From positions 1-42,454 of IMG/VR virus record IMGVR_UViG_3300029613_000341: DNA of 42,454 nucleotides. The stretch is one strand, 5' to 3'. The notes below the pieces were generated by a model, which saw only the letters and a program-made list of their open reading frames with translations, ran no database searches and had not been told where the DNA came from. Shown here one piece after another: positions 1 to 42,454 of the stretch (positions are counted from its first letter, which is position 1; the number at the start of each line of letters is the position of its first letter). This DNA comes from a virus. Lineage: Duplodnaviria > Heunggongvirae > Uroviricota > Caudoviricetes. A program made the translations under genes and the position numbers.

Positions 1-1719
1 ATGATTTTTAGGGATAGCTTGAGAGTATTACCTTATGGTCGAGTAGATAATGATTTCTTCCAGATAGAAGAAAGACGTTCATGGAATGCAGGGCGATATT
101 ATTGGTCTAATAGAAGGATTTTTGGTTATATTGGAATTACTCAATCCAGTAATAAAGAGCTGAAAGATAAGTCGGGGAGAGAGGGATTCATAAGAAACCA
201 GGCTGCAAGAGAACTGAAAACTATTATATCTAATTTGTTAACTGAACTTGCTGATAGATTTTTTGGTTCACGTTCTGATGACCGTAAAGAGCTTTTAGAA
301 CAAGTTAAGCGTGAAAAAGAGTTAAGAAAATCTGCTCAACAACAAGCTCGAAAATCAACACAAAAAAGTTTTTCAGAAGCTTTGAAGAATCAGACACCAG
401 TTCTTGATGCTTCCTTGGAGGCTGTTAAAAGGCTGAAAACTAAGCTTGATAAAACTGATGGTTCGTTAGATTTAAACTATCTTAAAATTATAGACAGTGA
501 TCTTACAAACTTAGATGCGTTGCGCAGTGAAATTAAAACGCCTATCAAACCTCCAAAACTTGGAATGTATGAAGAGAAATATAGAGACTACAGAGATAAA
601 TTTAATGAGTTCTCTGCGTATATTCTACAAATGAAGTTAGCAATTAATAAACTTGATTCTGAATTAAATAAACTTGAGCCTTCATTGTCAGCGAAAAATC
701 ACCTTGAAAAAAATCAAGGTATTATTAATTCTAAACTAACTAAGTTTAATAACACGATAGAGGAGAAGATACATTCTCTTTTAAAAAAATGGGCCGATGA
801 AATAAAGGTTGATCGAAGTGATTATTATGCTAAAACTATATCAGTTGTTGATTCAATAGATAATGATTCACAAATTGAAAATGTGTTTAATTTGCTCGAT
901 AGTTTATATGTTGAGTCAGTTGATACCCTAACTTTCAAATATCAATCAATAATAAAAGGTCTCGATAGATTATTTGAAGGTATAAACTTAGATTCAGCAT
1001 TCTCATTATCTGAAGAAGAACGCTCATATTTTGAAGAAAAAGCTAAAAGTTTAAACGCGCTTGCACAGTTAGGTATTAGTGTTGAGATAATATCTCATGA
1101 ACTTGAAGAAATGGATTCTATGGTAACCAGAGGACTAAACTCTCTTCCTACTTCTGTAAAAGAACACCCTGGTTTTTCATTGGCGTTAAATGCTCACAGA
1201 TCGCTTACTCAACAAATACGTTTCTTATCACCTTTGAAAATATCAGGTTATCAATCCAGGCAGAGAATAACTGGAAAAAATATCATGGATTATGTCCTGA
1301 AGTTCTTTGGGGAGCGTTTCGAACGGCAACGAATAACTATTGAATTTAGTGAAGAGTTTAAGCAAATCGCAATAACAGATATACCATCAAGGATCTATCC
1401 TGTTTTTACTAATATTATCAACAATGCAATGTATTGGGTCAGTCTGTCAAATAATAGGCTCATAAAGATTGGTTTTGTGAATTCTTTGGTTATCATAGCA
1501 AATTCTGGTCCGGCAATTGATACCGATGATATCCCGCGACTATTTGAACTATTTTATAGCAAAAGAGCAAATGGACATGGGGTAGGTCTGTATCTATGTC
1601 GAGAAAACCTTGCTGTTGCACATCATAAAATATGGTATTCAGAACCTGATGAAGGCGATAACTATTTAATAAAAGATGGCGCTAATTTTGTGATCCAGTT
1701 CAATGGAGTGGAGTTCTAA
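1..1719 (+). CDS. Histidine-kinase-like protein: coiled-coil-rich region, HisKA-like H-box, C-terminal GHKL (HATPase_c-like) ATPase; ORF is open to base 1, so the 5' end may lie outside the window
   Basis: Long ORF in frame 1. H-box-like I-S-H-E-L-E-E (His codon 1096-1098). C-terminal ~130 aa carry N-box-like NIINNAMYW, G1-like ANSGPAID and G2-like GHGVGLYL motifs. Visibly AT-rich compared with the phage backbone. Confidence 0.55.
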   Translation: MIFRDSLRVLPYGRVDNDFFQIEERRSWNAGRYYWSNRRIFGYIGITQSSNKELKDKSGREGFIRNQAARELKTIISNLLTELADRFFGSRSDDRKELLEQVKREKELRKSAQQQARKSTQKSFSEALKNQTPVLDASLEAVKRLKTKLDKTDGSLDLNYLKIIDSDLTNLDALRSEIKTPIKPPKLGMYEEKYRDYRDKFNEFSAYILQMKLAINKLDSELNKLEPSLSAKNHLEKNQGIINSKLTKFNNTIEEKIHSLLKKWADEIKVDRSDYYAKTISVVDSIDNDSQIENVFNLLDSLYVESVDTLTFKYQSIIKGLDRLFEGINLDSAFSLSEEERSYFEEKAKSLNALAQLGISVEIISHELEEMDSMVTRGLNSLPTSVKEHPGFSLALNAHRSLTQQIRFLSPLKISGYQSRQRITGKNIMDYVLKFFGERFERQRITIEFSEEFKQIAITDIPSRIYPVFTNIINNAMYWVSLSNNRLIKIGFVNSLVIIANSGPAIDTDDIPRLFELFYSKRANGHGVGLYLCRENLAVAHHKIWYSEPDEGDNYLIKDGANFVIQFNGVEF

Positions 1720-1720
1720 T

Positions 1721-3469
1721 ATGACAGTGGCAAATTATAATTCTCTTGTCCAGAAAACTTTCTGCGAAAATGCAATTCGTTCCGTTGTCATGATTGATGA
1801 CGATTTTCTGACGTATTCTGAATCAATCAGGGCGTTGAATAACGAAGTTGATTTAGACTACAACAAAATTGACTCATCTAAACGAGCCGCTACTCTTGAG
1901 AGCTTTTTTCAATCTAAAAATATGATTTGTGATGTTGACAATGGTTCTGTTAATTTCGATGTGGATCGGATTAGAAAATCAGATCTTATTATTGTAGATT
2001 ATCATCTTGATAATAATGCACCTGATAAAACACTTAAACTATTACAAGATTTGAAAGACTCCGATCATTTAAATATGATTGTAATATATACTAGAGAGAA
2101 TTTAGAAACGGTTTGGATGCAGATATCATCGACTCTCAAAGGTGCTCTGGATATCAACAGCTTGATCATTGACTACGATAATGAAGATGTCCAAAGTTAT
2201 TGGGAAGACGTTGTATTACCGAACTTAAATGATAATGGTAATAAAGCTCTCACAAGAGATGAAACAATAGCCTATATTAAAGACAGTAAGCCTTGTAGAA
2301 GAATTAAAAGATTAATACATGATGATGCTGTGTTGGAGGATCAAAAGGATAAAAACTTCATTGCAAAAATGATTGCAGAATATGCTGTGTCTAGAAATGC
2401 AATTATTTCTAGCAACACATCTGGCAATGTCATTCGGGGTGATGAAAGCGGAGTAAAATGGATTCAATGTGGTAATATCTTTGTCTCCCTATTTCATAAG
2501 GTTCAAGATGATCATGAAAACGATGGAGATAGGATTTGGCAAACTCTCAATGATTCTCTCATTGAATGGAAACCATCTTATTATCAGTTAATAAAATCTG
2601 AAATTCAGAATGCAATCGAAGCTGAGGCTTTATCTTTTGTAAATCATTTGGCTAACGATCATTACGGTCAAGCTGCGTGGTTAAATGAGATATTAAAATC
2701 AGACTCGCCTGATATTAGATGTAGAAATATTGACTTTGTATTTGGTAATTTATCAGAAGAGCTTTATCAAAGACTTAAAAATAATAATACGCTGGATGAA
2801 TTTATCAAAAGTGTTTTTGATAGCTATTCAAATGAATACGCTAACAGCGGAGTTGCTGCATTGCTCCAATATTGCTCTTCAAAAATGGATCTGCCATCAA
2901 ATAATGATACTTATCACGAAATGTATCATGCTTTAAATATGAATTTGTCTTCAAAGAATTTTGAAGATGGTCATATTTCTACTGGCACTATTTTCTTTGA
3001 TACAGAGTCGAACAAATGGTATTTATGTGTATCTGCGGCATGTGATTTGGTTCCTACTCAGGGTAACGACCCTCACCATGTAAGATTAAGTCCGCACAGG
3101 CTCATTAAAGTTCTGGAGCTTTTTAACGCCAGTCAGAGTAAAGCATTGCCATTTGCTGAACATTCGAAATATATATATGTAATGCATAAAAATCAAAGAA
3201 AATATCTCTCTATTTTCGAAGGGGATAAAACGCTTCCTGTTGTTGATTATATGGTGGTGTTGAATCATGGAACAACAGTTGATGGCGAAGAAAAAAATAT
3301 TATTTCTGCCGTGTTTTTAAGTAATATGGATGGCAACGTGCAAAATGTTCCTGTCCGACTCAAACTTAAATCTCAACTGAGAACTGGTTATGCAGAAAGA
3401 TATCAGGCTATAGCGTCTCAGTATAGCTCAAGGATTGGTGTGGATTATGTATCAATGATGCTACCATAA
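1721..3469 (+). CDS. Receiver (REC)-like domain protein with ~450-aa C-terminal domain of unknown function
   Basis: ATG at 1721 one base after the upstream stop (TAA 1717-1719), GGAG-type RBS just upstream. N-terminal ~130 aa have the receiver pattern: VVMIDDD acidic pair, DLIIVDYHL with candidate acceptor Asp (codon 1997-1999), MIVIYT. Remainder has no motif I recognise. AT-rich. Confidence 0.5.
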   Translation: MTVANYNSLVQKTFCENAIRSVVMIDDDFLTYSESIRALNNEVDLDYNKIDSSKRAATLESFFQSKNMICDVDNGSVNFDVDRIRKSDLIIVDYHLDNNAPDKTLKLLQDLKDSDHLNMIVIYTRENLETVWMQISSTLKGALDINSLIIDYDNEDVQSYWEDVVLPNLNDNGNKALTRDETIAYIKDSKPCRRIKRLIHDDAVLEDQKDKNFIAKMIAEYAVSRNAIISSNTSGNVIRGDESGVKWIQCGNIFVSLFHKVQDDHENDGDRIWQTLNDSLIEWKPSYYQLIKSEIQNAIEAEALSFVNHLANDHYGQAAWLNEILKSDSPDIRCRNIDFVFGNLSEELYQRLKNNNTLDEFIKSVFDSYSNEYANSGVAALLQYCSSKMDLPSNNDTYHEMYHALNMNLSSKNFEDGHISTGTIFFDTESNKWYLCVSAACDLVPTQGNDPHHVRLSPHRLIKVLELFNASQSKALPFAEHSKYIYVMHKNQRKYLSIFEGDKTLPVVDYMVVLNHGTTVDGEEKNIISAVFLSNMDGNVQNVPVRLKLKSQLRTGYAERYQAIASQYSSRIGVDYVSMMLP

Positions 3470-3540
3470 TTATTATATTTTAGGCGTGGTGATTTTTTTT
3501 CGCCATGCCTATTTTATATTTATCATCACAATGATGTTGT

Positions 3541-3957
3541 TTATTTTTGTTTAAGTCTTCTAAGCTTCATGCATTCTAATGAGAATAATAATAGAGTTGT
3601 GCTGTATATAAAGCCAGAGTTAGTTAATAACTTTAAATTTAATGCTTCAGGATTTTCACTGAGAAAGTGAAAGGCATAAACTAAGTATACAGCTAAAGTA
3701 GCCGTTCCAATTGTTGGTCCAATATCGCCTTGATCATGAGGTTCAAGGTTTACATTGAACTTGAAGATTAGCCATTCAAATCCCCAAGTAAAAAAAACAA
3801 CTAATATCATGGCTGCGAATAATTTCGCGATGTTATCTGCTGATGGATTCATCAGAACAGATTGTTTCTGAAAAAATTCACAAAGTGAGAGTCCGAAAAA
3901 AATAAAAAAAAGTGGTCTGGAACTAAATTTTTCAAAAACTTTGAATAGGGTTTCCAT
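3541..3957 (-). CDS. Small hydrophobic (membrane) protein, unknown function
   Basis: 138-aa ORF with several hydrophobic stretches (LFFIFFGLSL, LFAAMILVVFFTWGF, IGTATLAVYLVYAF), directly downstream of and co-oriented with the P4-type integrase; AT-rich. Confidence 0.35.
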   Translation of the reverse strand: METLFKVFEKFSSRPLFFIFFGLSLCEFFQKQSVLMNPSADNIAKLFAAMILVVFFTWGFEWLIFKFNVNLEPHDQGDIGPTIGTATLAVYLVYAFHFLSENPEALNLKLLTNSGFIYSTTLLLFSLECMKLRRLKQK

Positions 3958-3995
3958 TTTCTTTACCTTCAGGATTATATTAGCTATTCTGATAC

Positions 3996-5225
3996 TTAGG
4001 CTACCAGAGCATTTGATCTTTGAGCTTGAACGTAATCACTCCACCATTGCATCAAACTCTGTCGCTCTATCAGATATTCTGCACGATTGTATGCTGCGAT
4101 AATTTCATCTTTTTTCGAGTGGGCAAGCGCTGCCTCAAGAACTTCAGCTCTGAATTTACCAGACTCCTCTGCCGCTGTTCGTGCAATAGAACGCATACCG
4201 TGAGCTACAAGCTCGCCTCCGAACCCCATTCGGATGATAGCTGCGTTGGCTGTTTGTTCATGCATATGATTAAGAGGCGCTTTTATGCTGGGGAAAACCC
4301 ATTCTCTATGCCCACTTATTGATTTCATTAATTCAAGGATGCGCAAAGCTTCTTTACTCAAAGGAACTTTGTGAAGCTTTTTCATTTTCATGAAATCAGC
4401 AGGAATGTTCCAAATGCTGTTGGTTGTATCAATATCAGACCACCTTGCGCGAACGGCTTCACCCGGACGAACCCATGTCAACAATTGCCATTCAATTAGC
4501 ATACGTGTTTCCAACCGGATTGACGCATTCGTCAAAGATTCCATAAACCTTGGCAATTCGCTTGGGGGAAGGGCAGGCATATTTTGCTTTTTTGGTTTAC
4601 TGAATCTTTGACCAAGGTTGTCAGCCGGGTTGAACTCAATAAGTTCTTCAGTAGCTGCCCACCGGAAGATTTCATTCAGACGTGAAATGATACGGCGTAG
4701 AGTTTCCAATACGCCTCGTTGCTCAATAGGATCAAGGTGTTGTTTTAAGAGCTTAGGTCGGATCTCATTGATAGGGACATTACCCAGACCGGGAAAGACA
4801 TTTCTCTCTAAGCTGCGCCAGATGTCTGCTGCATGGTCTTGTGAGATACCTGATGTCTTTACCTTCTCATCTAACCATTTCCGCGCTACGGCTTGGAGAG
4901 TGTGCTCAGTAGCACTCTTTAATGCCTTCGCCTTATCGTTGTTATGGATTTGGGGATCAACACCATTTGCCAGAAAGGAGAGATATTCATCACGTAAGGC
5001 TCTGGCTCTTGCAAGGGTAAGGTGAGGATATGTCCCAAGGCTCATTTTGGTTCTTTTCTTGCTCACTGGTACTGCATACCTGAAATACCAATTTTTCTTG
5101 CCTCCTTTCGCCAAAGGAGCGATTCGTAGAATCAGACCATCACCGTCAAACAAGTTGATTTCTTTATCGGCTGGCTTGGTGCTTTTGATTTCAGTGTCAG
5201 TGAGCTTCTTAGCGATTTTTGCCAT
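3996..5225 (-). CDS. int: Tyrosine recombinase/integrase, P4 (CP4-57 IntA-like) family
   Basis: ORF 3996-5267; most likely start is the Met of MAKIAKKLTDTEIK (5225). N-terminal arm-binding region typical of P4-family integrases, C-terminal catalytic motifs (AHGMRSIART, AAYNRAEY). Lies ~170 bp from the ssrA 3'-end fragment, the usual tmRNA-int arrangement. Confidence 0.85.
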   Translation of the reverse strand: MAKIAKKLTDTEIKSTKPADKEINLFDGDGLILRIAPLAKGGKKNWYFRYAVPVSKKRTKMSLGTYPHLTLARARALRDEYLSFLANGVDPQIHNNDKAKALKSATEHTLQAVARKWLDEKVKTSGISQDHAADIWRSLERNVFPGLGNVPINEIRPKLLKQHLDPIEQRGVLETLRRIISRLNEIFRWAATEELIEFNPADNLGQRFSKPKKQNMPALPPSELPRFMESLTNASIRLETRMLIEWQLLTWVRPGEAVRARWSDIDTTNSIWNIPADFMKMKKLHKVPLSKEALRILELMKSISGHREWVFPSIKAPLNHMHEQTANAAIIRMGFGGELVAHGMRSIARTAAEESGKFRAEVLEAALAHSKKDEIIAAYNRAEYLIERQSLMQWWSDYVQAQRSNALVA

Positions 5226-5319
5226 TTTGGGACCCTCGGTTTTTGGACCCTTCTTAGTGGGTCCCATTCAGGGTGCCATAACTCGTAGTTCTCAGCAATT
5301 CTCACTGGACGACAATAGA

Positions 5320-5390: not shown

Positions 5391-5435
5391 TGGTGGAGCT
5401 GGCGGGAGTTGAACCCGCGTCCGAAATTCCTACAT
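5391..5435. repeat. att direct repeat (45 bp identical to the ssrA 3' end at 41395-41439)
   Basis: TGGTGGAGCTGGCGGGAGTTGAACCCGCGTCCGAAATTCCTACAT occurs at both positions; the copies diverge immediately afterwards (ACC here, CCT at 41440). Confidence 0.85.
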
Positions 5436-5549: not shown

Positions 5550-6569
5550 TTATTTACCTTGAGAATCTATAGGTAAGATCCCCTTAAAAATCAAAAAATC
5601 TGGATCGTAAGCATAATTGGCTAAAAAATCACCGTTATTGGCAGTTGCTTGGAAAATAATTGTATTTTGATCAATTAGCATGTACAGAGATATCAATATA
5701 TCTCGTAATCCACGAAACATTTCTTTTATTTCTTTTTCATCTGAAAATGATGTTTCTATTCCTAAGTTTGATATCGGATCAAAAATCTCAAATTTGTTGA
5801 CTTCTCTTTCATAATTAACTCCTAGTTCTCTACACAGCCATACCACTTGTGCTTCAATGTTCTCTAAATTAGATATGTTAACTTGTTTTGGGTAAAGCTG
5901 ATTGTATCTTGCTATTTCATGCCCAATGTTGTTATATATATTTTCTAATTTTTCAAGGAATGATTTATCAACTTCATTGTTATATCCAGTGGAGATTGAG
6001 GATTTTGTGAATATTTTTTTATATAATGAGTAGGTATGAACTACAGATAGTTTAATTGTGTCTTTTTCGAAAGTTGTATTATCTCGACGAGAAAGGGTAA
6101 ATGACGGTAACGTTTTAAACATATCCGAATAATTCTTGAGGTGAGCGTAGTAAGCATCACTGCGGTTTTTCTCAGTCACTAGATCTATCTGTTGCTGTGT
6201 TTTCCTAATTTGATTTTCCGTTTGTATTGTTCTGTGAATGTTAGCGACTATAGCTACAAAGGGTATCGAAAGGGAAAGAAGAGCGATAGGCAACTTGCTT
6301 ATTTCAATGAAGTTTGAAAATCCATCAGCATCAAATTGAGGAGAGTGTCCCATCCATGAGAATATACCGAAGTATAAGGATGAGATAATAGGTATTCTGA
6401 TGGATTGTTTAAATAAATTTTGTTTTGTTAGCCTTTCCTCAGTCATTTCAAAATAATTATTATTTTTGTTTTTTGTGTATTCAATAAATAGATATATTAA
6501 ATAAAGAATTATAAGGAACGTAGATATTTCTGGTTTTTTTATATAGCTAATTACGAATTCTTGAGTCAT
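5550..6569 (-). CDS. Membrane protein of unknown function (prophage moron between attL and int)
   Basis: ORF 5550-6581; the Met at 6569-6567 overlaps the int stop as ATGA (TGA 6568-6566), suggesting translational coupling. About three N-terminal hydrophobic helices, ~200-aa soluble C-terminal part. Strongly AT-rich. Confidence 0.5.
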   Translation of the reverse strand: MTQEFVISYIKKPEISTFLIILYLIYLFIEYTKNKNNNYFEMTEERLTKQNLFKQSIRIPIISSLYFGIFSWMGHSPQFDADGFSNFIEISKLPIALLSLSIPFVAIVANIHRTIQTENQIRKTQQQIDLVTEKNRSDAYYAHLKNYSDMFKTLPSFTLSRRDNTTFEKDTIKLSVVHTYSLYKKIFTKSSISTGYNNEVDKSFLEKLENIYNNIGHEIARYNQLYPKQVNISNLENIEAQVVWLCRELGVNYEREVNKFEIFDPISNLGIETSFSDEKEIKEMFRGLRDILISLYMLIDQNTIIFQATANNGDFLANYAYDPDFLIFKGILPIDSQGK

Positions 6570-7594
6570 GGTGTGGTCCATTTTAATCTATATAAAGGGT
6601 TTTTTGATACTGCATCCTCTAAATGATCAGGTGCAAAATGTGCATAAACCATAGTCATTTTTATATCCGAGTGACCAAGGATGTCGCGCAACACGAGTAT
6701 GTTTCCGCCGTTCATCATAAAATGGCTAGCGAATGTATGGCGCAGTACGTGGGTGCATTGGCCCTCCGGTAGATCTATACCTGCCCGTTTTACTGCTCGT
6801 TCAAAGGCTTTTCTACATGGTGAGAATAACTTCCCTCTGTTCTTTGGGAGTTCGTCATACAGCTCCTGTGATATGGGTACTGTTCTGTTTTTCTTGCCTT
6901 TGGTCTTTGTATAAGTAATTCGGTATTTCGATATTTGGTGGCCCTGTAGGTTTTCTGCTTCACTCCATCGCGCACCAGTAGCCAGGCATATTTTTGCAAT
7001 CATTAGTAGGCTGGTGTTTTGAGATTCGGCGCAGGCATTAAGCAGGCGTTTGATTTCGTCCGTGGAAAGAAAAGCCAATTCACCTTCAGCAATTTTGAAG
7101 GTTGGAAGCCCTGCCAGTGGGTTTGGTGCGGACCAGTGCCCTAGTTTTTTCAATGTACCGAACACCGATGACAGATTGCGTTGTTCAAGATTTACCGTGC
7201 GGGGCTTAACCGGTGACATGAGCACGCCATCTTCGTTTTTGATCTCACCTTTTAATCTGGCTTCCCGGTACTTTGTGAAATCACCTGCTGTCAATTCAGA
7301 AGCGATGGGATCGCCAAGCCCATTACAAATGATTTTTAGCTTAGCCATTAATCGCTTAGGGTCAGCGAGTGTCTGACCGTACAGGGAATACCATTGCTCA
7401 ATCACTTCTGACAGTGGTCGCCGATCTTCCTTTTCTCCCAGCCAAGGTTTCTTGTTTACCTCATCCATGGTGAAATTCTCAAACGCAATGGCTTCGCCTT
7501 TCGTCGCAAATTGTTTGCGTACGCGTTTGCCATCTCTCCCGTTTGGGTAGCATTCACATAACCACTTTCCGTTCGGCTGTTTTCTGATCGTCAT
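6566..7594 (-). CDS. int: Phage integrase (P2/186-type tyrosine recombinase)
   Basis: 342-aa ORF with catalytic motifs HVLRHTFASH and LGHSDIKMTMVYAHF; recalled similarity to P2 Int; immediately downstream of cI. Confidence 0.9.
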   Translation of the reverse strand: MTIRKQPNGKWLCECYPNGRDGKRVRKQFATKGEAIAFENFTMDEVNKKPWLGEKEDRRPLSEVIEQWYSLYGQTLADPKRLMAKLKIICNGLGDPIASELTAGDFTKYREARLKGEIKNEDGVLMSPVKPRTVNLEQRNLSSVFGTLKKLGHWSAPNPLAGLPTFKIAEGELAFLSTDEIKRLLNACAESQNTSLLMIAKICLATGARWSEAENLQGHQISKYRITYTKTKGKKNRTVPISQELYDELPKNRGKLFSPCRKAFERAVKRAGIDLPEGQCTHVLRHTFASHFMMNGGNILVLRDILGHSDIKMTMVYAHFAPDHLEDAVSKNPLYRLKWTTP

Positions 7595-7596
7595 GA

Positions 7597-8235
7597 TTAG
7601 ATGCTCTTAATCACTTTTACCACACGCCCTACAACGTCTACGTCATCAACTGCACATTCAAAGGTTGTTTCTTCCTGATGAACAACAAGCTTATTTCCGG
7701 GAATTCGAGCTACTTTTACGATGCTTTTCACTCCATCAATATCAACAAGCCAGGAGCCATTACTGATCTGTTTTACAGATACATCAACAATAAAACTTTC
7801 TGTTGTCGTTTGTATGAATAGATAGTTTGACGAGTCGCCCTCAACCAACCTGCTATCTAATAAAATTTCGTCATATGATTGAAGTTCACCATTTCTTAAC
7901 TCTGTGTATTTGATACTGGGAGCTACGATTTTAGAAAGTGGTCTAATTGTGACGTCATTATCATTTTTGAGAATGTTTACGTCACTGTTATCTGCATACA
8001 TATCACCCTGTCCGGTTGCCAACCAAAGAAGCGAGATCCCGGTTTCTAGTGCACATTGAATTACCCATTCTGCTGGAAAACTATCTCTTAAGTATCTGTT
8101 TGCCATGGTACTTTTTGATACTTTTAAGTGTTCGCAGAGTTGTTGGCGTGAGCTGAAATTGTAGGCTTTTATCAGCCTGTTGATGGCATCACGACCCCCA
8201 CTATCGTTTCCACCCTTGATTAGACTCATAATCAA
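7597..8235 (-). CDS. cI: Immunity repressor, phage 186 CI-like
   Basis: Matches my recollection of 186 CI over its length (NRY.R, CALETG..L.WL.TG.G, GLWLVDI.G..SI, FEC..DD....GRVV.V); divergent from the early operon. Confidence 0.8.
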   Translation of the reverse strand: MIMSLIKGGNDSGGRDAINRLIKAYNFSSRQQLCEHLKVSKSTMANRYLRDSFPAEWVIQCALETGISLLWLATGQGDMYADNSDVNILKNDNDVTIRPLSKIVAPSIKYTELRNGELQSYDEILLDSRLVEGDSSNYLFIQTTTESFIVDVSVKQISNGSWLVDIDGVKSIVKVARIPGNKLVVHQEETTFECAVDDVDVVGRVVKVIKSI

Positions 8236-39378: not shown

Positions 39379-40475
39379 ATTTCAGCTCTGAACTGCTTAA
39401 CAAAGGCAACAAAACTCCGGCATTCAGCATCAGTATTGAAGGCAGGGATATCACCACTGTGCTGGACAACCGCCTGATGGGGCTGACGCTGACGGATAAC
39501 CGGGGATTTGAAGCGGACCAGCTTGATCTGGAGCTGGACGACGCCGATGGAAAAATCGTGCTGCCGCGCCGTGGTGCGGTCATTACGCTGGCGCTGGGCT
39601 GGAAGGGGCAGCCGCTTTTCCCGAAAGGGGCATTCACGGTGGACGAGATTGAACACACTGGCGCACCGGACCGCCTGACTATCCGGGCGCGAAGTGCTGA
39701 TTTTCGTGAAACGCTGAATACCCGCCGTGAAAAGTCGTGGCACAAGACCACCGTTGGGGAAGTGGTGAAGGAAATAGCTGCGCGGCACAAACTGAAGATG
39801 GCACTGGGTAAAGACCTGTCAGATAAACCCGTGGAACATATAGACCAGACCAATGAGAGTGACGGCAGTTTTCTGATGCGGTTGGCGCGCCAGTACGGTG
39901 CTATTGCGTCGGTGAAAAATGGCAATCTGTTATTCATCCGACAGGGACAGGGTAAAAGCGCCAGCGGTAAACCACTGCCGGTGATCACTATCACACGCAA
40001 GGACGGCGACAGTCACCGCTTTACCCTGGCAGATCGCGGAGCCTACACGGGCGTAATTGCCAGCTGGTTGCATACCCGCGAACCCGCGAAGAAAGAAAGC
40101 ACTACGGTGAAGCGTAAGCGCAGAACGAAGAATCAGAAGAAAGAGCCGGAAGCGAAGCAGGGCGATTACCTGGTGGGTACGGATGAAAACGTGCTGGTAC
40201 TTAATCGCACCTATGCCAACCGGGGCAACGCTGAACGGGCAGCGAAAATACAGTGGGAACGTTTGCAACGCGGCGTTGCGTCATTCTCGCTACAACTGGC
40301 GGAAGGGCGGGCAGATCTCTACACGGAAATGCCTGTGAAGGTCAGTGGCTTTAAACAGCCGATAGATGATGCGGAATGGACCATTACGACTCTGACGCAT
40401 ACCGTCAGCCCGGATAACGGTTTTACGACCAGTATTGAACTTGAAGTGAAGATTGATGATCTTGAAATGGAATAA
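39375..40475 (+). CDS. D: Tail protein D (P2 gpD family)
   Basis: 366 aa; conserved position before ogr. Confidence 0.85.
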   Translation: MNFSSELLNKGNKTPAFSISIEGRDITTVLDNRLMGLTLTDNRGFEADQLDLELDDADGKIVLPRRGAVITLALGWKGQPLFPKGAFTVDEIEHTGAPDRLTIRARSADFRETLNTRREKSWHKTTVGEVVKEIAARHKLKMALGKDLSDKPVEHIDQTNESDGSFLMRLARQYGAIASVKNGNLLFIRQGQGKSASGKPLPVITITRKDGDSHRFTLADRGAYTGVIASWLHTREPAKKESTTVKRKRRTKNQKKEPEAKQGDYLVGTDENVLVLNRTYANRGNAERAAKIQWERLQRGVASFSLQLAEGRADLYTEMPVKVSGFKQPIDDAEWTITTLTHTVSPDNGFTTSIELEVKIDDLEME

Positions 40476-40543
40476 ATGGTTCTCAATATTGGTATTTTGT
40501 GTATCATTACGATGATTCTGATAGCAAAGGTAGGGATCTGGAT

Positions 40544-40762
40544 ATGATGAATTGTCCAAAGTGTGGTCATGCGGCGCACACAAGGAGCAGTTTTCAAGTA
40601 ACAGAAAGCACCAAAGAGCGTTACTGCCAGTGCCAAAATATTAACTGCGGGAGCACTTTTGTTACCCATGAAACAGTGGTCCGGTTTATTGTGACACCCG
40701 CACTGATTGCTACTGCTCCTCCACATCCATTGCCAGGTGGTCAGGGGCATATGAATTTTTGA
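40544..40762 (+). CDS. ogr: Late-gene transcription activator, Ogr/Delta zinc-finger family
   Basis: 72 aa from the Met at 40544; C-x2-C...C-x4-C zinc finger (CPKCGH ... CQCQNINC); matches P2 Ogr as recalled. Confidence 0.85.
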   Translation: MMNCPKCGHAAHTRSSFQVTESTKERYCQCQNINCGSTFVTHETVVRFIVTPALIATAPPHPLPGGQGHMNF

Positions 40763-40788
40763 GAAAGAGAACCTGCTACGGCAGGTTT

Positions 40789-41271
40789 TTATTCATCTGG
40801 GATCTCACCCGTTTCAAGAAAATGTATAAAGCCAGGCTCATCTATGATGATTGTGCCTTTCATCCTGGCTGCCGATACTTTTGATGGGCCTGCATTGTAA
40901 CCGCAACAGAGCATCTGAAGGCTTTGGGTTACAGAGGTTCTTACCGTTAATCCTTGTTCATTCGCCTTATCAACCAATCTTTCTTTATCTGCTTTCTTAA
41001 ATCCGGTGAAACACACATCGAATGTATTTTTTTTCGGACCAGATTGCTTAGTGAGATGTGAGTAGTTTTCGGGGAGGAATGACGCGCATTCCTGAATGGC
41101 TTGTTCTGGTGAATCGTACTGTTTAAGAATGCGGTCTTTTCGGAAGGTTTTTATTCGATCGGTGTTCTTACAAATGCCCTGTATATGATTTTCGCTATAA
41201 CTGATGCTCTGTATAGAGTGAACACCGATACGACCATTTGCATTGATGTAAACAAAGTGAAGTTCTTCCAT
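40789..41271 (-). CDS. Small protein with C-terminal BRCT-like domain and unknown N-terminal domain (moron next to attR)
   Basis: 160 aa; C-terminal FDVCFTGF...QGLTV.TSVTQSLQMLCCG.NAGPSKVSAARMKGTIIIDEPGF resembles the BRCT domain of NAD-dependent DNA ligases; AT-rich; lies between ogr and att. Confidence 0.55.
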   Translation of the reverse strand: MEELHFVYINANGRIGVHSIQSISYSENHIQGICKNTDRIKTFRKDRILKQYDSPEQAIQECASFLPENYSHLTKQSGPKKNTFDVCFTGFKKADKERLVDKANEQGLTVRTSVTQSLQMLCCGYNAGPSKVSAARMKGTIIIDEPGFIHFLETGEIPDE

Positions 41272-41354
41272 GTGAAACCTCTTTGCATGATTTCAAGATG
41301 GCGACAGGCAAGATGGACGCAAAAGTCTGTCGCCATTTTGCCGCCACTACCAAA

Positions 41355-41388
41355 GAAAAAGGGGCTACGCTTTCACGTAACCCCTTGA
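41355..41388 (-). terminator. Rho-independent terminator of ssrA
   Basis: Minus strand reads GGGGTTACG-TGAAAGC-GTAGCCCC followed by TTTTT, just downstream of the tmRNA 3' end. Confidence 0.5.
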
Positions 41389-41394
41389 TTTATT

Positions 41395-41439
41395 TGGTGG
41401 AGCTGGCGGGAGTTGAACCCGCGTCCGAAATTCCTACAT
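41395..41439. repeat. att direct repeat (phage core overlapping the ssrA 3' end)
   Basis: Identical to 5391-5435. Confidence 0.85.
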
Positions 41440-41757
41440 CCTCGGTACTACATGCTTAGTCAGTCTTTACATTCGCTTGCCAGCTGCGGACGGACACGCC
41501 ACTAACAAACTAGCCTGATTAAGTTTTAACGCTTCAACCCCAGGCAGGGCTTCCACGCGATCTCTTTTGGGTTTGACCTCTCTTGATCCCCGTCCTAAGA
41601 GCGGAGGCTAGGGAGAGAGGGCTCTAAGCAGGTTATTAAGCTGCTAAAGCGTAGTTTTCGTCGTTTGCGACTATTTTTTGCGGCTTTTTACGAGGCCAAC
41701 CGCCCCTCGGCATGCACCTTGGGTTTCGCAAATCCCGTCGAATCCAGAATCAGCCCC
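41395..41757 (-). ncRNA. ssrA: tmRNA (SsrA), 363 nt
   Basis: Reverse complement begins GGGGCTGATTCTGGATTCGACGGG and ends ...GTTCAACTCCCGCCAGCTCCACCA; contains the tag reading frame GCAAACGACGAAAACTACGCTTTAGCAGCTTAA (ANDENYALAA-stop); matches E. coli ssrA as I recall it. Confidence 0.95.
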
Positions 41758-41971: not shown

Positions 41972-42454
41972 TTAACGGTGGGCGTTTTTCATGATACGTG
42001 CTTTATCCACCTGCCATTCGCGTTCTTTGATATCTGAACGTTTATCGTGCTGTTTTTTACCTTTGGCGACGCCGATTTTCACTTTGCACCAGGCATTTTT
42101 CCAGTACAGGGAGAGCGCCACTACGGTATAGCCTTCTCGATTGACGCGACCGTACAATGAGTCCAGTTCGCGCTGGTTGAGAAGTAACTTGCGGGTACGG
42201 GTAGGATCGCACACCACATGCGTGGAGGCCACGGCCATTGGCGTGATGTTAGCGCCAAACAGAAATGCCTCTCCGTCACGCAGAAGGACGTAGCTGTCGC
42301 TGATATTGGCTTTTCCTGCGCGCAGGGATTTAACCTCCCAGCCTTGCAGGGCAAGTCCCGCTTCGAACTCTTCTTCGATAAAGTATTCGTGACGGGCGCG
42401 CTTGTTAAGCGCGATGGTCGCTGAACCAGGTTTATGTGCTTTTTTCTTCGTCAT
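41972..42454 (-). CDS. smpB: SsrA-binding protein SmpB
   Basis: 160 aa beginning [47 protein letters not shown]; matches E. coli SmpB as recalled; start codon is at the last bases of the window. Confidence 0.95.

Follow-up and report, generated by a model that had tools for sequence, protein, structure and literature searches.

A WYL-BRCT protein gene beside the attachment site of a P2-like prophage

Introduction

In phage P2, the late-gene activator gene ogr lies close to the attachment site (att). In the P2-like prophage analyzed here, a small gene on the opposite strand lies between the two, which raises the question of what kind of protein it encodes and to which part of the phage program it belongs. 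The window, i.e., the whole stretch of DNA that was analyzed, comprises 42,454 nucleotides of IMG/VR record IMGVR_UViG_3300029613_000341. An earlier note on this DNA had described a gene inserted in the ogr-att gap and coding for a stand-alone BRCT domain that might act as a sensor or as an anti-defence decoy. The structure, homologues and genomic surroundings of the gene were used to examine this description.

Coding sequence and conservation of the gene

The gene occupies 40789..41271 on the minus strand and encodes 160 amino acids from an ATG start, followed by a stop codon; the reading frame cannot be extended upstream. A Shine-Dalgarno sequence, AAGAGG, is located 6 nt 5' of the ATG on the minus strand (41278..41283, read as 41283..41278), in or beside a small hairpin in the predicted fold of the leader RNA. 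The GC content is 41.2% (GC3, 39%), compared to 49.4% for the whole prophage and 54 to 60% for the adjacent tail genes. The earlier description of an AT-rich, 160-aa gene on the opposite strand was therefore exact.

Between E. coli alleles of the gene, dN/dS was 0.04 to 0.07, and comparison of the E. coli gene with a Yersinia phage copy gave a dN of 0.21 with dS saturated. Together with full-length homologues down to ∼30% identity, the dN/dS values exclude a chance ORF. The gene is functional, conserved at full length and under purifying selection (dN/dS of ∼0.05), and the possibility of a degenerate remnant lacking conservation, which had been raised as a potential refutation, was checked and did not hold.

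Organization of the right end of the prophage

The attR core, 45 bp at 41395..41439, forms the 3' end of ssrA and is a perfect direct repeat of attL at 5391-5435. The ssrA gene (tmRNA; 41395..41757, minus strand) was the sole match of an Rfam scan, and smpB (41972..42454) comes after it in the window. On the phage side, ogr is located at 40544..40762 on the plus strand, as assigned by Pfam (Ogr_Delta, 9e-21) and by the RefSeq annotation of identical loci, and is convergent with the gene under study. A hairpin at 40770..40787, identified by a hairpin scan and in the sequence, is common to both genes and, since a T-run follows it on the plus strand, also resembles an ogr terminator.

Read along the minus strand from ssrA, the order of elements is a hairpin (41386..41359), a 21-nt block (41327-41347), an inverted partial copy of that block (41298-41307), the ribosome-binding site and the gene. 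The hairpin at 41359..41386 (minus strand) is strongly terminator-like, with a 12-bp stem and a T-run. It stands directly after ssrA, between the ssrA/attP core and the gene, is supplied by the phage side of att, and is kept in SopEΦ, RE-2010 and a Klebsiella phage. In the block at 41327..41347, CTGTCGCCATTTTGCCGCCAC, the minus strand has two copies of TGGCGRC as direct repeats. The block is kept in all related attP arms, including those of phages integrated at other sites, and phages without the gene have both the block and the terminator hairpin in invariant form. CTGTCGCCATTTTGCCGCCAC therefore probably represents integrase arm-type sites and the inner limit of attP. The gene begins ∼55 nt past this motif. 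The inverted copy, 10 bp in length and found only in the E. coli lineage, is able to pair with 41327-41336 across a loop of 19 nt; the motif and its inverted copy might be Int arm sites and/or a regulatory element.

The gap itself is empty in SopEΦ and RE-2010, relatives that also integrate at ssrA and in which ogr ends ∼50 to 80 bp from att, and in the Klebsiella phage it is filled by an unrelated small ORF. The gap thus appears as a variably filled cargo slot, and the gene had been correctly described as an insertion in it.

A promoter scan found no σ70-like promoter 5' of the gene; in an upstream alignment inspected by eye, a plausible -10 element (TGTAAT) was seen only in the Klebsiella/Citrobacter type. 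Given the lack of a σ70-like site and the presence of a terminator that cuts the gene off from ssrA and from the cI-int unit, expression in the present lysogen is putative.

Family size, distribution and domain variants

A word-indexed search returned 122 homologues from Enterobacterales and beyond, nearly all of 155 to 175 aa and matching over the full length. An exhaustive HMMER search extended the family to 2777 cluster representatives at E≤1e-3, with 198 at E≤1e-30. Relatives were found in Klebsiella, Citrobacter, Yersinia, Vibrio, Mannheimia, Burkholderia and marine bacteria, while two IMG/VR scans for related loci recovered mostly the enterobacterial att-edge lineage.

Among 5426 complete E. 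coli genomes, 176 (∼3%) carried the gene. A related D gene was present in 1313/5426, and the D-ogr module of the present prophage in 186. Most P2-like prophages therefore lack the gene, which is fixed in a single right-end module. The interval from the D stop to the ogr start (40473-40547) looks like a recombination breakpoint: the 3' end of D was matched at 90 to 96% identity in the 1313 genomes, homology ended at the D stop codon in most, and it continued past that codon into the present ogr allele in only 186/1313. These alignments suggest that ogr, the gene and attP are exchanged together, as one right-end module.

Many relatives are longer. N-terminal extensions were found in 45 of the best 150 of the 2777 representatives, and in 39 of these 45 the extension was predicted to contain transmembrane (TM) helices followed by a low-complexity linker, with one to three such helices at the N terminus of many relatives. 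C-terminal extensions occurred in 16 of the same best 150. Apart from occasional extra BRCT domains, no Pfam domain was detected in the N- or C-terminal extensions of the longer relatives. Four C-extended proteins (P0133, P0156, P0174 and P0189; 395 to 485 aa) have in common a conserved extension of ∼230 aa with the motifs PR..L.A.F, GW, LQV and LL..G..P and no Pfam match. P0156 is encoded between the repressor gene and int of a P2-like prophage. This extension may be an effector or a partner-mimicking domain.

The C-terminal BRCT domain

An AlphaFold model built from a 44-sequence alignment had a pLDDT of 92 and a pTM of 0.52, the latter being as expected when a flexible linker connects two domains. 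This model was used throughout; a single-sequence prediction (pLDDT 47) was discarded. The domains are separated by a linker at aa 63-83 (41023..41085, minus strand), which forms the block of lowest pLDDT (69) and is variable in length and poorly conserved in the alignment.

Residues 84-155 (40807..41022, minus strand) form a BRCT domain of the LigA/RFC1 type, as indicated by Pfam, residue conservation, the AlphaFold model, Foldseek and a profile search of the PDB. With Pfam BRCT (PF00533), the 160-aa protein alone remained under the cut-off of 21.3 bits, with a score of 19.5 (E 1.1e-3), whereas 41/44 homologues (best 2e-6) and 38/45 longer relatives (best 7.5e-21) were matched. The model displays the β-α-β-β-α-β-α order of the BRCT fold, so the C-terminal half was rightly called BRCT in the earlier note and the absence of such a fold, named there as a refutation, was not encountered. 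When the family profile was searched against all PDB sequences, only the BRCT domains of RFC1 and LigA were significant (E 4e-5 to 4e-4). The best BRCT matches in Foldseek were likewise bacterial LigA and RFC1 on nicked or gapped DNA, with 26 to 28% identity to RFC1.

The residues expected of a phosphate pocket and DNA contact surface are present, i.e., a T/S-G pair after β1, a basic residue in α1 and a lysine at the start of α2. T89, G90 and K131 are invariant in the family alignment, and K96 is conserved in at least 90% of sequences. In the HMMER alignment, K96 corresponds to R174 and K131 to K209 of yeast Rfc1, two residues that line the DNA channel (PMC9293009). The preferred ligand of the isolated RFC1 BRCT domain is a 5'-phosphate end bearing a 3' overhang (Kd, ∼10 nM; earlier work summarised in PMC9293009), and the LigA BRCT domain contributes to DNA binding (PMC10504179). 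Since LigA and RFC1 were the only significant PDB sequence matches, 5'-phosphate ends, nicks or gaps are a likelier ligand than phosphoproteins. Of the two ligands named in the earlier note, phosphorylated proteins or DNA ends, the second is thus favored and the first is less likely. As judged from its domain class, the protein probably binds 5'-phosphorylated DNA ends or gaps.

Fold, closest sequence class and the T-G, basic and lysine positions of the phosphate pocket are common to this domain and to LigA and RFC1. Here, however, the BRCT domain is fused to another module, described below, with neither ligase nor AAA+ clamp-loader parts attached, so that it can only bind, not seal DNA or load a clamp. 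Another small phage protein with a LigA-type BRCT domain is subunit B of the split NAD+ ligase of T5-like phages (PDB 9hu3_B, LigB of phage Eps7); that subunit has HhH motifs and a catalytic partner, subunit A, whereas the present prophage has neither.

The N-terminal WYL-type domain

The earlier note had left the N-terminal ∼75 aa without an assignment. In the AlphaFold model, residues 1-62 (41086..41271, minus strand) form a five-stranded SH3/Sm-like barrel as found in WYL domains, with strands at aa 3-9, 15-25, 29-34, 40-44 and 48-52 (pLDDT 93 to 96) and a helix at 55-62. Conserved residues of this part are Y8 and the motif T42-F43-R44-K45-D46-R47, which corresponds to the WYL β5 motif and is the sole conserved sequence feature of WYL domains in the family. 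The 160-aa protein itself gave no Pfam WYL match at E<=10. Pfam WYL (PF13280) matched 9/44 close homologues (best 1.5e-5) and 24/45 longer relatives (best 1.2e-8), and the PADLOC WYL model matched 27/45 longer relatives (best 7.9e-11). Foldseek returned PafBC (9fnd_Y, prob 0.97) and a small phage "WYL domain-containing protein" (prob 1.0). A profile of the N-terminal part alone had a single weak match among PDB sequences, in which the FRxDRI motif of 8bnv_A was aligned at E 1.5; the assignment therefore rests on the Pfam and PADLOC matches of homologues together with the fold.

On this evidence from homologues and the predicted fold, the N terminus is taken to be a divergent WYL domain. The BRCT domain recognized in the earlier note is accordingly not stand-alone, as residues ∼1-55 form a WYL-type barrel, and the profile and structure searches called for there have supplied the missing assignment. 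The combination as such was listed previously by Makarova et al. in 2014 (PMC4012209) as a WYL+BRCT fusion.

WYL domains bind single-stranded DNA (ssDNA) (PMC11662680, PMC9186387, PMC11804915). In CapW, arginines flanking the W-Y-L triad (RWHVR) contact ssDNA, and the WCX domain completes the ssDNA crevice (PMC11662680). In the present protein, the triad is replaced by H-I-Q, the strand reads H/Y-I/L-Q-G-I-C across the family alignment, and the flanking arginines are absent from the family. Neither an HTH nor a WCX domain was detected in the 160-aa protein by Pfam or in the model, and the barrel stands at its start and the BRCT domain at its end, unlike the wHTH-WYL-WCX order of the regulators. 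With no triad, no flanking arginines and no WCX crevice, the ligand of the WYL domain may differ from that of the regulators.

The likeness to the wHTH-WYL-WCX regulators PafBC, DriD, CapW and BrxR, which are often tied to phage defence and DNA-damage sensing, thus consists of the SH3-like barrel and the β5 motif FRxDR(I/V), while HTH, WCX, triad and flanking arginines are all missing. Because its output domain is BRCT, the WYL-BRCT protein is not a transcription factor of the PafBC/CapW type.

Database names

PHROG 2561 matched the protein over its full length (E 2.2e-77), with residues 1-159 aligned to positions 2-167 of the 167-position profile, and is named "DNA ligase." In the genome of phage Cartapus, the gene is called "putative exonuclease," and RefSeq uses "hypothetical" or "BRCT domain-containing protein." Identity with NAD+ DNA ligase LigA was rejected: the score with the NCBIfam model TIGR00575 was 19.6 bits, where 444 is the cut-off, only positions 549-650 of 652 were covered, and no adenylation (KxDG), OB, Zn-finger or HhH domain was found in the 160 aa. 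A DEDDh exonuclease was rejected likewise, as NF004719 gave 26 bits against a cut-off of 389 over positions 229-307 of 331, which are the BRCT tail of that family. Judged by these alignments, both labels are BRCT-only mislabels; they are wrong and should not spread further. That the gene is an enzyme fragment or a decaying ligA remnant, which is what the two names would suggest, is barely conceivable, since scores far under the cut-offs were confined to the BRCT part, ligase domains are lacking, and decay is excluded by the full-length conservation and low dN/dS.

In PADLOC-DB v2, no known defence model matched the 160-aa protein over most of its length, and an SspE match was weak. The candidate model PDC-S48 was matched in its BRCT part only (28.6 bits, E 1.8e-7, positions 335-406 of 411). 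Its C-terminal BRCT domain is closely related, with matches to 38/45 longer relatives down to 5.5e-17, but the remainder of PDC-S48 is absent from the WYL-BRCT protein and PDC-S48 is itself only a candidate.

Genomic context of WYL-BRCT genes

The distribution of the gene next to att was surveyed in 29 non-redundant representatives (<90% identity). Thirteen were located at the att edge and convergent with ogr/D, while at least 12 of the 29 lay directly 3' of a repressor gene, separated from it by -67 to +35 bp and often followed by int. In both positions, the WYL-BRCT gene was co-oriented with cI and int. Its place in the ogr-att gap was thus correctly seen for the present prophage but is not peculiar to that gap, as elsewhere the gene lies within the repressor-integrase unit.

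In Mannheimia phage PHL101, a CI-like repressor gene is followed after 4 bp by the WYL-BRCT gene. In a Xenorhabdus prophage, CI, the WYL-BRCT gene and int follow one another at distances of 35 and 3 bp, and in Vibrio phage PV94 a small ORF stands between the WYL-BRCT gene and int, after the repressor gene. Serratia ficaria has the order HTH, Flk_N protein, WYL-BRCT gene, int; a 405-aa C-extended relative is encoded in the order HTH, ORF, WYL-BRCT gene, int; and the gene of a TM-tethered relative begins 10 bp 3' of an XRE repressor gene. In Burkholderia phages, XRE, an ORF and the WYL-BRCT gene follow each other, convergent with D. The gene therefore pairs with both 186-type CI and XRE-type (XRE/HTH_3) repressors. 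On one strand of their virion genomes, Cartapus and Yersinia phage MLG42 carry cI, int, cargo in some cases, attP and the WYL-BRCT gene, in this order.

In the present prophage, the lysogeny unit, delineated with Pfam, spans 5550..8235 on the minus strand and contains cI (8235..7597), int (7594..6566) and a cargo gene, ORF343 (6581..5550). By the geometry of excision, the minus strand of the circular form reads cI, int, ORF343, attP, WYL-BRCT gene, with the lysogeny unit upstream on the same strand, as in Cartapus. It is well supported by these arrangements that the WYL-BRCT gene is an accessory ("moron") gene of the P2-like lysogeny transcription unit. In many phages it directly follows, and is co-transcribed with, the repressor gene; in this E. 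coli lineage it lies just past attP, which separates it from the cI-int unit, so that it might be expressed differently in the integrated and the excised phage.

Accessory genes are known from neighboring intervals of such phages. The cI-int interval of Vibrio P2-like phages is a defence hotspot (Rousset et al., PMC9122126), and a 2026 survey found defence cargo in the int-att interval of P2 (PMC13586616).

The latter interval is also occupied here. ORF343 (343 aa, 5550-6581, minus strand) fills the interval between attL and int, with a 16-nt overlap into the int stop region. It matched PHROG 17460 (unknown function), had no Pfam or PADLOC match, and was found in 2/5426 complete E. coli genomes; Cartapus has a different, 401-aa "RES" gene in this slot. 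Given the rarity of ORF343 and the presence of the "RES" gene, the int-att gap is a second, highly variable cargo slot. ORF343 was considered as a partner of the WYL-BRCT protein and rejected, because it occurs in 2 and the WYL-BRCT gene in 176 of the 5426 genomes and because Cartapus has another gene in its place.

Left of attL, a second integrative element stands in tandem at ssrA (window 1-5267). It contains a P4-type integrase gene (3996..5267, minus strand), an ORF of PHROG 6556 (3541..3957, minus strand), a gene with HATPase_c and HEF_HK domains (1..1719) and a Response_reg_2 (PF19192) gene (1703..3469); going by their domains, the last two are possibly a conflict or signalling pair. In E. 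coli 13P477T, the phage was found with the WYL-BRCT gene and a piece of ssrA in a separate replicon record of 37,446 bp (CP019275.1), in which ogr is labelled "levansucrase regulator," and ORF343 was matched at 100% in the chromosome of the same strain (CP019273.1). CP019275.1 may represent the excised or circular phage as assembled.

Discussion

The data well support a two-domain protein without a catalytic domain, built from nucleic-acid-binding modules. What is new is best described as a BRCT output in place of HTH on a WYL sensor, located in a prophage lysogeny module, the fusion itself having been noted in 2014. Literature on WYL+BRCT proteins and on BRCT domains in phage defence contained no function, ligand or phenotype for the WYL-BRCT family, and no paper with an experimental assignment was found, in line with the earlier note.

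A role in superinfection immunity or defence is proposed tentatively, as a real possibility short of an even chance. The WYL-type barrel belongs to the kind of module that senses ssDNA in PafBC, DriD and CapW, and BRCT domains of the LigA/RFC1 class grip DNA at 5'-phosphorylated ends, nicks and gaps; in the model, a flexible linker would join the two. The protein would be made in the lysogen, for which expression is clear where the gene abuts the repressor gene and putative in the present prophage, and would then bind a single-strand/double-strand junction or a 5'-phosphate end. Possible targets are the cohesive or resected ends, nicks and gaps of incoming or replicating foreign DNA. Binding could block circularisation, ligation or replication, or report the foreign DNA to a partner. 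In the TM-tethered relatives, DNA might be captured at its entry site in the inner membrane, or the tether might mark a membrane effector. Immunity is favored by the patchy, low-GC, hotspot-type distribution of the gene, its independence of the repressor family, its orientation away from the lytic operons and the membrane tethering of relatives. Speaking against it, the 160-aa form lacks an effector domain, and the inspected neighborhoods showed no partner gene that recurs throughout. The stronger proposal, that the family is a new class of prophage immunity without an enzymatic effector, which senses the 5'-phosphate end or single-strand/double-strand junction of invading DNA and blocks its circularisation or replication, is more doubtful, although conceivable.

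Genes for lysogen-expressed immunity beside the repressor include λ rexAB, those for membrane Sie proteins and glo of Vibrio phage K139. The accessory, low-GC, patchy and repressor-linked logic of these genes, and of the cargo of the cI-int interval in Vibrio phages, is the same as that of the WYL-BRCT gene. There is, however, no kinship in sequence or fold, and exclusion by the WYL-BRCT protein is only putative.

The repressor-adjacent location fits a regulatory role equally well, and this is the main rival reading; a sensor, as suggested in the earlier note, would be plausible. The protein might modulate the lysogeny switch or induction, with WYL and BRCT domains sensing ssDNA or damaged DNA and signalling to the repressor, to integrase and excision, or to an attP complex; the operon logic would resemble that of immR-immA-int of ICEBs1. 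Such a role would account for the many phages in which the gene directly follows the repressor gene and precedes int, is in keeping with the characterised WYL proteins, which are DNA-damage sensors, and would suit a gene start ∼55 nt from the conserved attP-arm repeats. It is nevertheless rather unlikely: the gene accompanies unrelated repressor families (186-type CI and XRE/HTH_3) and is absent from SopEΦ and RE-2010, close relatives with the same switch, its low GC content and patchy distribution argue against a core regulator, membrane-tethered variants are a poor fit to action at an operator, and the protein has neither a protease nor an HTH domain.

Action on the phage's own DNA or against host defence seems distinctly unlikely. 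Here the protein would, by capping or mimicking ends or nicks, shield phage DNA from RecBCD or other nucleases in a Gam-like manner, or compete with or recruit LigA, and the closeness of its BRCT domain to LigA and RFC1 and the separate BRCT-bearing ligase subunit B of T5-like phages are what speaks for it. Anti-defence genes are normally early lytic, however, whereas this one belongs to the repressor/integrase unit and faces away from the lytic operons; the prophage has no catalytic ligase subunit as a partner, and the ends would have to be protected at a stage when no phage gene is yet expressed. Membership in the repressor-integrase transcription unit across phages argues for a lysogen-expressed function over the anti-defence decoy suggested in the earlier note, which is thereby disfavored. 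An adaptor for a phosphorylated host or phage protein, by analogy to eukaryotic BRCT domains, is highly improbable, as the sequence groups only with the DNA-binding LigA/RFC1 class, phosphopeptide readers usually have a tandem pair where a single BRCT domain is present here, and no kinase was encoded in any inspected neighborhood.

Should the immunity proposal or a damage-sensing role prove right and DNA ends or gaps be bound in lysogens, P2-like prophages would possess a very small, single-gene means of policing incoming DNA or of sensing damage. If true, a WYL domain without HTH output and a bacterial BRCT domain outside LigA would each acquire a defined role as well.
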